A stretch of 58,594 nt of DNA from Escherichia coli. Its GTDB lineage: Bacteria; Pseudomonadota; Gammaproteobacteria; Enterobacterales; Enterobacteriaceae. Position numbers: made by a program. Below, one piece after another: positions 52,801 through 55,800 of the stretch (the first letter of the stretch is position 1; every line of letters starts with the position of its first letter). The stretch lies in NCBI RefSeq assembly GCF_030013205.1, contig NZ_CP122650.1; one strand, given 5' to 3'.

Positions 52801-55800
52801 TCGGCACATTCACCGCCATAACCCGGATGTCTTTCTGCCGGATCATTTTCTTCAACGTATTCCAGTCTTCCCCTGACAGGCGGGAAAGTCTGTCCACATC
52901 CTCGATAAGCAAAATGTCATTTTGTTGGCAATCTCTCAGAAGACGAAAAAGTTCCGGGCGCTCAAGACGGGTGCCGGATTCATTCTCAATATAGTAGCTG
53001 CAAATGATCAGGCCTCTTTCCCTGGCAAAAGCCTCGATAGTTTCCAGGGCACGCGAAGCATCCTGTTCTGCTGTTGAAGCTCTCAGATAAGCGCGGACAA
53101 AGCTTGTTGGTACATTTGAAGTCATATTACAGAACCGGTTCACATAAGGTTACACCACTATACCCAAAATGCACCAGAAAGTAGATCGACAGGAAAGGCA
53201 CACTCAAAAAGAACCAGAAAACAGACCTCCGGCCATAAAGTGACAATGTCACACAGAAATTTACAACATAAAGATGATGTAAAGACGGTCTCAGCTTTAC
53301 CACGTAAAGCCACTATAAATACACACAAATCTTTACATAATAAAGATAACATAAATACAAGCTTATCTTTATTTGTGCTTTACATGGTAAATCATGTGTA
53401 ATATAAAGACACTGTAAAGACAAAATAATCTTTACGAACAACACACACTGTAAAGATAAGACAGTCTTTACATAATCTTTACGTCATAAAGAGAGGAATT
53501 CTGAAATGGGTAAAATCTTGCTTGTCGTATCAGATAAGGGTGGTGTAGGCAAAAGCACCTACGTGGCTAACACAGGCTCAATGCTGGTCAATAAAGGTAA
53601 GTCGGTAATTATCCTCAAGACAGATAAAAACCACGATCTGTTGAGCTGGAACGAAAAGCGGACAGATAACGGCTTACTCACTATCCCGGTTCATGCAGCT
53701 TACGGAAACGTCAGCAATGAAATTAAGCGACTTAGTAAGCTGTGTGAAGTCCTCATTGTCGATTGCCCCGGCCACGACAGCCAGGAGTTCCGTAGCGCCC
53801 TGACAGTATCAGATATCGTGGTAACACTGGTTAAGCCGTCCTCTGATTTCGAAAGCGAAACTCTGACCAGTGTTACAGAGAAAATCCGCATCGCTCAGAA
53901 AGCTAACGCAGCCCTGGTACCGTGGGTGCTGTTCACCAGAATCAACTCAGCGAAACCCCGCCACAGAAAAGCGGCCATTGATCTGGATAAATTACTGCGT
54001 TCGGACAACATCTGGATTCAACCTCTTAAAACCCGGATATCCGAGCTGGATGTGTATGAAAGCGCCTGTAATGAAGGGGCAGGGGTACATGACGTTAGCC
54101 GGGCATCAAGCCTTTCAACAGCGAAAGCACAGATTGAACTAGTGGCGCAGGAAATTGGAATTTTATAGTAATATCAATACCATCTATAAATATTTACATT
54201 GTAAAGATAATATAAAGATAGTATGATATTTACTATTAATGCATACCGTACAAGGGGAAATTGTCATGGCTTTAAAACTAAACCGTCCGAACATCGATGA
54301 ATCTCAGCAACCAGCAACAAACGCAGAAACCGCGCGTTTTATCTCCGGCGCTACCAGAGCGCCTGTAGTGGGTAAACCAAAGTTGATGAACTTCAGACTT
54401 TCAGCCCATTTTGAGGACATACTGGAAGCTGAAGCTATCAGAACAGGGCAGAGCAAAACAACCGTTCTCAAAGCGGCGCTGGCGATGTACAACAGCCAGG
54501 ATGAAAACATAAAGAATCACTGGTTGCTTGAGTCTGCAAAATTCTAACCATAGAAGCATGGATGAAAATCTATGAGATATTTAACCGAATTGATCTGTGA
54601 CCTCTACAGGTTGACAGATCACCATAAACTGACCACAGCAACGTTTAAAAATCTTGCTGATATTAAGTTATTTAAACCTACAGCAGATGCAGACACCATA
54701 TTGCAGCTTGAAAATATATTTAGCGAATACTCACTGAGATATATTGACAAGGATCTGGCTGAAATTCTGAGCAACTTAATAACTACAGATAAGAAACACT
54801 CTCTGGACTTCGATTTTAACAAAATACAATCTCTGACTGACTCGAAAAGTTTCGGTTGTGGATGGAGCAAGGTAATAAATGGTAGTTGGTTCAAAGATCT
54901 TTATTCTTGGGGAGAGGGGATGTATCCTGCCGAAAATCTGAAAGCTGAAAATATTTTAGACTGGAAAGATAATATATGGCACATTGAGCATGAAGGTTTC
55001 CCCCCACGCAACCCTATTAATGTTAAATATTATTCTTGGTTTGACCGATATGTAGCTTCAAACAGTGGTGGTTCACATCATGCAGCAATGGTTGTATATC
55101 AATCAGTCAGAGACGGGTTAGAGTATAAAAGAGAAGCTGTTATTAAACAACTGAGTATAGACCCAGGCACTGTTGAAATACTTGATAAGAATTACTATTC
55201 ATTCATATTCCAGATCAAAACCCTTAATAAAGAAACTAGAATTTATACATCTGAATACGAGTTTACAGATGCTTTAAAAGACTTTGGACAAAACAGACAT
55301 ACCATACTTAAACCTGTTAATTACGTTTCCAACATAAAATTAGTATTTATTCCAAAAGATGCATTAAAAACAAATAGCGAGACATTCCGCAACTGGTTTC
55401 ATTCTGCAATTAGCTGCGGAAAAATAATATCACTCCCTGATTATCTGAAAAATCCAGCACATTATCATACACTTCATTACTCACATGAAGTAGACTCAAT
55501 AACACTTGGCGACCCAAGCAGAAAATTTAAACTGAAAGGAGATTCTTAGCTTTTATATAAAAAATCAATGTTATCATTTGTCAGAAGATCAGCGAGGGTA
55601 ATACATTCAAGAACCACAATATTTGTTCCTTCCAACAAACTGGCATCAAGTATCTTATCGAAGCTGATAATCATCATTGGCTTGCGTTGTGTTAAATCAA
55701 AGATTACCAATGGAAGTATTACACTGTTAATTAATTCAAACTCTTTAAAGAAAGCATCAGTGCCATACTCACTGGCTGGAAAAAGAATCTCAATTAATCT

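Follow-up and report, generated by a model that had tools for sequence, protein, structure and literature searches.

Short repeats of the form CTTTAC/GTAAAG are crowded on both sides of parA on an Escherichia coli virulence plasmid, and the question raised by this locus is which protein reads them and what they do for the plasmid. The DNA analyzed is a stretch of 58.6 kb (58,594 nucleotides of contig NZ_CP122650.1, assembly GCF_030013205.1), referred to here as the window. In it, parA (53506-54168, + strand, encoding 220 aa) is followed after a 97-bp gap by a gene for a 93-aa protein (54266-54547, + strand), the candidate centromere-binding protein, which we refer to as the adaptor and which has a predicted ribbon-helix-helix (RHH) fold. 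A first-pass annotation of the window had drawn attention to the repeats in 53250-54235 as a possible centromere or operator for a ParA/ParG-like pair. Our analysis confirmed the dense repeats on either side of parA, found that this interval correctly encloses both box sites, and supports the proposed role, as the boxes travel with the parA/RHH pair, are conserved, and change together with the β-strand of the RHH protein. Most likely, the 93-aa RHH protein binds at these boxes, which together constitute the cis-acting site of a type Ib partition system, a centromere doubling as an operator.

The box array and its spacing

Exact copies of the hexamer CTTTAC/GTAAAG number 35 in the window, of which 10 lie within 53279-53482 upstream of parA and one lies in the gap between parA and the adaptor gene. 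Its pentamer core, TAAAG/CTTTA, peaks at 15 per 250 bp at the par locus, compared with an average of 0.64 over the window, and nowhere else in the window does the density come near that level. The enrichment was measured against 5000 dinucleotide-preserving shuffles of the 362-bp intergenic region upstream of parA (53144-53505). The 16 pentamers observed there compare with a shuffled mean of 1.27 ± 1.08 and a maximum of 7, and the 10 hexamers with a mean of 0.26 and a maximum of 4. Chance low-complexity sequence is excluded by these shuffles. Replication iterons would be in keeping with short iterated repeats, since the plasmid replicon is of the iteron type (Rep3/pi initiator gene, 56525-57361), but the replicon has its own distinct 22-bp repeats at 57506-57731 and the Rep3 gene is 3 kb away. 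An origin of the array in iterons or chance is therefore extremely improbable in our judgment.

When degeneracy is allowed, the box can be written as (G/A)TAAA(G/T), which on the + strand is read either in this form (R) or as its inverse, (C/A)TTTA(C/T) (L). By this definition, 19 boxes lie in 53259-53492 upstream of parA and 4 in the gap at 54192-54233. The first part of the upstream array comprises L 53259-64, R 53268-73, R 53279-84, L 53295-300, R 53304-09, R 53315-20, L 53331-36, R 53340-45, and R 53351-56, and the second part comprises L 53367-72, L 53378-83, R 53387-92, R 53403-08, R 53414-19, L 53430-35, R 53450-55, L 53466-71, L 53477-82, and R 53486-91. A weight matrix derived from the boxes gives a core of approximately 8 bp, GTAAAGAC. 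Scanning the window with this matrix revealed no other box cluster (at least 3 boxes per 100 bp outside the par locus), and we therefore rejected the idea that the boxes are targets of a global regulator like omega or KorB. An RNA element was also rejected as the identity of the array, since an Rfam scan of 51000-55000 returned a sole match, AgrB at 52079-52166, and none in the array.

Close inspection of the array revealed that the distance between boxes depends on their orientation. The order of the upstream boxes is LRR LRR LRR LLR RRL R LLR, and the distances between successive box centres are 10, 11, 15, 10, 11, 15, 10, 11, 15, 11, 10, 16, 11, 15, 21, 15, 11, and 10 bp, which corresponds to a rule of 10 bp for L followed by R, 11 bp for equal orientation, and 15 bp for R followed by L. 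With the 8-mer GTAAAGAC taken as the box, the head-to-head and head-to-tail distances are both 11 bp and the tail-to-tail distance is 14 bp. The rule generates a 36-bp super-repeat, in which the three distal L-R-R triplets recur (repeat family D1, one of five families, D1-D5, into which the upstream repeats were grouped). The units past the triplets are inverted, making the whole upstream array roughly a dyad, and the inverted repeat I1 has arms of 41 nt that are 83% complementary. The rule holds for 100 of the 125 adjacent box pairs in eight loci, and the exceptions are mostly one-box skips of 21 or 26 bp. The unit had initially been described as shorter and more irregular than those of typical parC or parH arrays. 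Neither point was borne out, as the box spacing is strictly 10/11/15 bp and the core of approximately 8 bp exceeds the ACTC tetramer of parH.

The four boxes in the gap, L 54192-97 (ATTTAC), R 54201-06 (GTAAAG), R 54212-17 (ATAAAG), and L 54228-33 (ATTTAC), obey the same grammar as L-10-R-11-R-15-L. Taken alone, this cluster is modestly significant, with 5 degenerate pentamer cores, namely the four boxes and a TAAAT that is weak and overlaps them, where the shuffles average 1.6; a count of 5 was reached in 39 of 5000 shuffles. In an alignment of the gap from six plasmid lineages (alignment A2), the boxes are invariant columns and form the most conserved stretch, with drifting flanks.

ParA and its 93-residue partner

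ParA is a Walker ATPase with a deviant Walker A motif, KGGVGKS, at residues 11-17 and without an N-terminal DNA-binding domain. It matches CbiA/AAA_31/MipZ in Pfam and scores 92 bits against the NCBIfam model NF041546 (ParA_partition), below the 180-bit cutoff, and its nearest solved structure is ParF (4dzz), with an E value of 3e-7 and residues 3-217 aligned. ParA belongs to the small type Ib class. A type II ParMRC system was rejected because the ATPase is a Walker-type ParA and not an actin-like ParM. The protein is 27% identical to a TP228-type ParF, and at this level the two read as members of a common superfamily, not as orthologues.

The adaptor is composed of a disordered N-terminal tail (residues 1-38) containing the conserved ATNAETARFI, a β-strand from K39 to L45 (KLMNFRL), two helices at residues 47-60 and 64-77, and an extra C-terminal helix at residues 80-92. 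In the AlphaFold model, which was built on a 22-sequence alignment, the first ~40 residues are disordered and the C-terminal half has a predicted local distance difference test score of approximately 88. The sequence has no significant match in Pfam, NCBIfam, or the PDB, and nothing above the curated-family cutoffs. The best Foldseek matches of the model are almost all RHH proteins (CopG, Arc, ParG, ParD, and MazE-type antitoxins), at an E value of approximately 0.7 that reflects a domain of only ~45 residues, and the template-modelling score with CopG is 0.76 when normalised to the target. The profile of the adaptor also finds CopG in the PDB (E 0.5), colinear across the strand and both helices. 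Pfam RHH_1 is detected in 17 of the 22 family members with a best E value of 4e-4, below threshold, and some source annotations name the adaptor a CopG-family regulator. Because the model, fold, profile, and Pfam lines agree, the adaptor likely has the RHH fold, although no single line is significant by itself and the assignment is formally below threshold.

The description of this partner as ParG-like in the first-pass annotation fits its predicted RHH fold and its gene position but does not extend to its sequence, in which no similarity to ParG is detectable: BLASTP against a TP228-type ParG gave no alignment at E <= 100, and a phmmer search of the PDB did not return 1p94. In the profile alignment, N42 and R44 of the adaptor align with T6 and T8 of CopG, β-strand positions that contact bases in RHH-DNA structures. 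The N-x-R pattern on the presumed DNA-reading strand resembles that of Arc, in which the equivalent strand carries N11 and R13. CopG and Arc, the best fold and profile matches, differ from the adaptor in that each acts alone as a repressor at a single operator and lacks both a ParA partner and a long N-terminal tail.

Boxes and adaptors across plasmid lineages

The locus was found in 1624 PLSDB plasmids by megablast and in 2508 by blastn, and a tblastn search with the 93-aa protein showed the adaptor to be encoded in 2624 of 72,556 PLSDB plasmids (~3.6%). We compared loci from IncX3 (pNDM5-type), IncX5 (pBK31567), IncX7 (Yersinia pestis pJARS35), and IncI2 (pSH146_65) plasmids, an Erwinia plasmid, an Edwardsiella plasmid, and an IncFII-linked contig, over which the identity of the adaptor falls to 54-70%. 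In all of them, (G/A)TAAAG boxes are the commonest hexamers upstream of parA, and a small gap cluster is present in each. Box sequence, spacing, and position are kept over at least eight diverged plasmid lineages, and the spacers between the boxes diverge. One could imagine instead that these repeats attract a nucleoid-associated protein (H-NS-like or IHF) or are simply intrinsically curved promoter DNA, given that the region is AT-rich and that an H-NS-like protein of IncX3 raises parB expression, according to a review (PMC9485871). Such a reading leaves unexplained an exact 6-8-bp motif with orientation-dependent spacing that is kept while the spacers vary, as well as the switch of the motif with the RHH β-strand described below, and we regard it as very improbable.

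In more distant relatives, from IncX4 (33% adaptor identity), Providencia (40%), and pPsv48B of Pseudomonas savastanoi (47%), position 42 is S or T and other boxes, GACATAC, GTACATAC, GAAATAC, and GTAAATAC, occupy both sites. The IncI2, IncFII-linked, IncX4, Pseudomonas, and Providencia relatives also have the gap cluster, in a box variant particular to each. The pPsv48B determinant SD4 (PSPSV_B0013/B0014; PMC6354349) is a true homologue, with a 47% identical RHH protein, a like gene order, and a like two-site layout; unlike the locus in the window, its boxes are GAAATAC/GTACATAC and its β-strand has T rather than N at position 42. By elimination in the text of that paper, SD4 is the one of the four pPsv48B determinants tested that is reported to aid plasmid stability modestly (PMC6354349). 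This effect of a distant homologue is the only functional result that we found.

A closer comparison is offered by two sister loci, L015 and L010, both adjoining IncFII repA. Their ParA proteins are 97% identical (91% at the DNA level) and their adaptors 83% identical, with residues 1-26, which contain the conserved ATNTETARFI, differing only at D12A. The β-strand changes from VNFRI in L015 to VTFKL in L010, the box-bearing DNA is the most diverged part (56% identity in the upstream array and 58% in the gap), and the boxes change from GTAAAGA/CTTTACA to GTATATA/GGTAAAT (also given as GTATATA/GTAAAT). The N-F-R triplet of the β-strand is otherwise nearly invariant among the 75 protein clusters of the adaptor family. 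That the box change tracks the β-strand change of the adaptor while ParA stays 97% identical supports a tie between the boxes and the adaptor.

An exchange of the entire module is seen in three IncX1 plasmids (L006-L008), which have a near-identical resolvase and identical DNA up to ~53225, followed by a TP228-type ParF/ParG pair. The region upstream of this pair is full of ACTC boxes (AACTCA occurs six times) and has no GTAAAG cluster, and ACTC is the experimentally defined ParG box (PMC3130281). Because the swap exchanges the boxes along with the par genes, the boxes belong to the par module and not to the resolvase. The difference between this module and that of the window also accounts for the term 'parFG' in the pOLA52/R485 literature on IncX1 (PMC3097218, PMC3402527).

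The same exchange bears on whether the boxes are accessory or crossover res sites of the divergent serine resolvase (52481-53143, - strand). The array does occupy the resolvase-parA intergenic region, and res sites are normally found upstream of resolvase genes. However, IncX1 plasmids with a near-identical resolvase swap the GTAAAG array for ACTC together with the par genes, relatives without an adjacent resolvase (IncX7, IncI2, IncFII-linked, and Edwardsiella) keep the boxes beside parA, and a separate conserved segment at 53127-53252 is a better res candidate. A res function of the boxes is thus very unlikely. The segment 53127-53252 is conserved in the IncX3, IncX5, and Erwinia loci and is probably the res site; it contains a palindrome, TGAACCGGTTCT, over the resolvase start, GAACCAG/GCACCAG repeats (GAACCRG, family D6) at 40-bp spacing, and a second palindrome, GTGACAATGTCAC, at 53240-53252. 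Plasmids that carry the swapped parFG retain the second palindrome, as GTGACnnnGTCAC, a short way into the segment that was replaced (the shared DNA ends at ~53225), and this palindrome may have a role in module exchange.

Adaptor-type domains were also encountered outside intact loci of this kind. In IncX1 parFG plasmids, an open reading frame (ORF) of ~100 aa directly after parG has an unrelated N-terminus (MDKKVADALKTLLEALPEEVV...) fused to an adaptor-type RHH domain (L007 2828-3139, L008 2828-3121, and a remnant at ~2713-2799 of L006), and this chimeric ORF is intact and diversified in many clusters (P0043, P0046, P0047, P0055, P0061, and P0068). On the one plasmid checked for a target of the chimera, the 32.9-kb L009, no proper GTAAAG cluster was found; a loose cluster of five pentamers in taxA (14430-14530) has neither the extended motif nor the spacing and is probably due to chance. 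A further adaptor, P0071, on the metagenome contig SRR18067317_1435348 (L011), has no adjacent parA; a different ParA/small-protein pair is encoded 1.6 kb upstream of it. Ahead of P0071, at 2425-2475, are four boxes with 11- and 16-bp steps, three of them TAAATAC and the fourth inverted, and this orphan copy is apparently self-regulated.

Candidate promoters, partition model, and plasmid context

A pattern search identified a candidate parA promoter within the array at 53379-53407 (+ strand), with a -35 element TTTACA at 53379-84, a 17-bp spacer, and a -10 element TATAAA at 53402-07. The -35 element lies on box L 53378-83 and the -10 element overlaps box R 53403-08, which would place the transcript start ~90 nt upstream of parA with six further boxes downstream of it. 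The TTTACA-17-TATAAA arrangement, a good sigma-70 match, is kept with identical spacing in IncX3, IncX5, and IncX7; a consensus scanner missed it because the scanner demands T at position 6 of the -10 element. The scanner did report a 9/12 match to an internal promoter for the RHH gene at 54199-54227 (+ strand), with -35 TTGTAA at 54199-204, a 17-bp spacer, and -10 TATGAT at 54222-27. The spacer of this candidate holds box R 54212-17, the last box (54228-33) is at the expected transcription start, and IncX3, IncX5, and IncX7 have equivalents (TTGTAA-17-TATGAT/TATAGT/TATAAT). On the + strand of the gap, the scanner detected nothing resembling a terminator. The simplest reading of this arrangement is that the adaptor would repress parA from inside its centromere and separately control its own gene. 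An iterated array of the type Ib kind is in place, with 19 + 4 boxes that covary with the adaptor and probably overlap promoters.

We propose that RHH dimers use N42 and R44 of the β-ribbon to read each ~8-bp box, GTAAAGAC, and load side by side, with their centres approximately one helical turn (10-11 bp) apart within a triplet and a 15-bp step tail-to-tail. Binding with this stoichiometry would give a protein-coated stretch of ~230 bp upstream of parA. From there, the flexible N-terminal tails (ATNAETARFI) would recruit and stimulate nucleoid-bound ParA-ATP, so that plasmid copies are positioned and separated. Since the candidate parA promoter lies inside the array, on or overlapping boxes, the same complex is proposed to repress parA, and the four-box mini-site in the gap, which overlaps the second promoter-like element, would lead to autoregulated expression of the RHH gene.

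A narrower role is conceivable, in which the boxes are operators that autoregulate parA and the RHH gene and the true centromere is elsewhere on the plasmid. It would agree with the promoter-like elements inside both clusters and with the status of RHH proteins as classic repressors, echoed in the CopG-family label of some annotations. Set against it are the weight-matrix scan, which leaves no other box cluster in the window, and the size of the array: a set of 19 boxes that spans 234 bp, with half the boxes located over 100 bp upstream from the candidate promoter, far exceeds what repression needs. In TP228, moreover, the operator and the distal boxes both act as centromeres (PMC3130281). We consider a purely regulatory role unlikely.

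Several points nevertheless weigh against a centromere that doubles as an operator. The literature searched contains no binding, footprint, or stability data on this locus or its close relatives, and sequence cannot by itself part a centromere from a pure operator. The RHH assignment draws on a moderate-confidence monomer model and sub-threshold matches, and the covariation of β-strand and boxes on one close pair and a few distant loci. Both promoters are consensus matches, and such matches are in part a by-product of the boxes, because the box resembles a -35 hexamer, TTTACA.

Comparison with known systems places the locus among several relatives in design. The par2 system of pB171 is of type Ib and has, besides a small ParB, short repeats in two clusters, parC1 and parC2, the latter downstream of parB rather than between the genes. 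The type II ParR/parC systems of R1 and pSK41 also have RHH adaptors and repeats approximately one helical turn apart that flank or overlap the promoter (R1 parC reportedly has 11-bp iterons, going by the title of Dam & Gerdes 1994), but their motor is the actin-like ParM and their repeats are all direct, in contrast to the mixed orientation and 36-bp super-period seen here. In TP228 ParF-ParG-parH/OF, a small Walker ParA likewise precedes a small RHH adaptor whose N-terminal tail is flexible, and ~20 short degenerate boxes, direct and inverted, lie upstream, the promoter-proximal ones doubling as the operator (PMC3130281). Unlike in TP228, the box in the window is GTAAAGAC and not ACTC, the spacing is 10/11/15 bp and not 8 bp, an extra cluster lies between the genes, and the adaptor has an extra C-terminal helix and no detectable ParG similarity. 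Membership in the TP228 ParFGH family proper was accordingly rejected, given the lack of ParG homology, the lack of ACTC tetramers with 4-bp AT-rich spacers, and a ParA only 27% identical to a TP228-type ParF. The omega heptads of pSM19035, WATCACW, are contiguous 7-bp units. The delta/omega system of that plasmid likewise has an RHH adaptor on arrays of short repeats in either orientation, with sites ahead of the gene for the ATPase and of that for the adaptor, each of which has its own regulated promoter (PMC3074150, PMC9499535), as we infer for the present locus. Omega also regulates copy-number and toxin-antitoxin genes, unlike the situation in the window, where no box cluster lies outside the par locus. 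By analogy, the two-promoter arrangement resembles delta/omega more closely than TP228.

The par locus is part of the IncX backbone, in the order resolvase, 362-bp intergenic region, parA, 97-bp gap, 93-aa ORF, DUF6685, ddp3, and Rep3/pi initiator. The DUF6685 gene (54572-55549, + strand, 325 aa) starts 24 bp past the RHH gene, is read in the same direction, and may be carried by the par operon as cargo. It is present in IncX1 and IncX5 loci, other small ORFs take its place in IncX3, IncX7, and IncI2, and its absence from these and other relatives led us to reject it as a core par component. Past the Rep3/pi gene, the IncX origin region, distinct from the par boxes, consists of six 22-bp iterons at 57506-57731, upstream of that gene, with a consensus of about CAGTGCGTACCCATCCACCTTT, and two copies of a DnaA-box-like repeat containing TGTGGATAAC at 57888-57963. 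On the other side, just past the resolvase, the AgrB antisense RNA (52079-52166, - strand; full-length Rfam match, 69 bits, E 7e-11) and an adjoining 84-nt ORF (~52243-52326, + strand), annotated as dinQ in the matching RefSeq record, form a DinQ-like type I toxin-antitoxin pair. A dqlB-agrB pair of the same kind was recently validated on IncX3 plasmids (PMC12317039).

The window matches end to end plasmids of pig enterotoxigenic E. coli typed IncX1 + IncFIA, such as NZ_CP122647.1, which bear F18 fimbriae, AIDA-I, and the alpha-haemolysin operon. An IS91-family transposase followed by duplicated short fragments of its 3' end occupies 49944-51600, including ORFs ending in ...RLTELVLMHEPLAQQRVCG at 51300-51458 that have mirror copies on the opposite strand. 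IS91 is present at several scattered places on the plasmid, suggesting IS91-mediated assembly of the virulence cargo on an IncX1 backbone. A 92-aa RHH-domain ORF at 31160-31438 (+ strand), downstream of IncFII repA and beside an IS91 accessory ORF, has no partner gene; it was rejected as a relative of the par adaptor because the two sequences are unrelated, and it resembles an orphan RHH protein of the antitoxin type.

The locus extends rather than overturns the type Ib picture, because its mechanism fits the established model and is expected from it. Its own features are the GTAAAGAC box, the oriented 10/11/15 grammar, the inter-gene site, and the joint switching of protein and sites. In the full-text literature searched, which leaves subscription-only papers outside, we found no description of the cis site of the IncX/IncI2 par family beyond mentions at annotation level; for instance, a review of IncX3 lists 'parA and parB' as backbone genes (PMC9485871). 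The cis sites of this widespread plasmid family thus appear not to have been described before. More tentatively, and with more doubt than confidence, we suggest that the whole family shares a distinctive centromere with oriented 8-bp boxes, the 10/11/15 grammar, a 36-bp super-repeat, a universal inter-gene site, and specificity set largely by N42 and R44. If this is true, IncX1 plasmids of the present type, IncX3, IncX5, IncX7, and IncI2 would have cross-reacting GTAAAG centromeres, mutual interference in partition would be possible, and the TFK/GTATATA locus and IncX4 (SFR/GACATAC) would represent escapes from that incompatibility.

No second ParA-type partition locus is annotated on this plasmid, and the par locus is its only recognisable active partition system, on a plasmid that carries F18 fimbriae, AIDA-I, and alpha-haemolysin. 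The clinical relevance of the module lies in the plasmids that bear it. It is found on IncX3, IncI2, IncX5, and IncX7 backbones, with a 33%-identical relative and other boxes on IncX4, and these backbones include carriers of NDM and MCR-1, such as epidemic IncX3 blaNDM and IncI2 mcr-1 plasmids. The boxes defined here are concrete targets for work on stability and incompatibility and may help to predict segregation interference between co-resident resistance plasmids, and the family offers a compact natural case of a centromere-binding protein and its sites changing specificity together.

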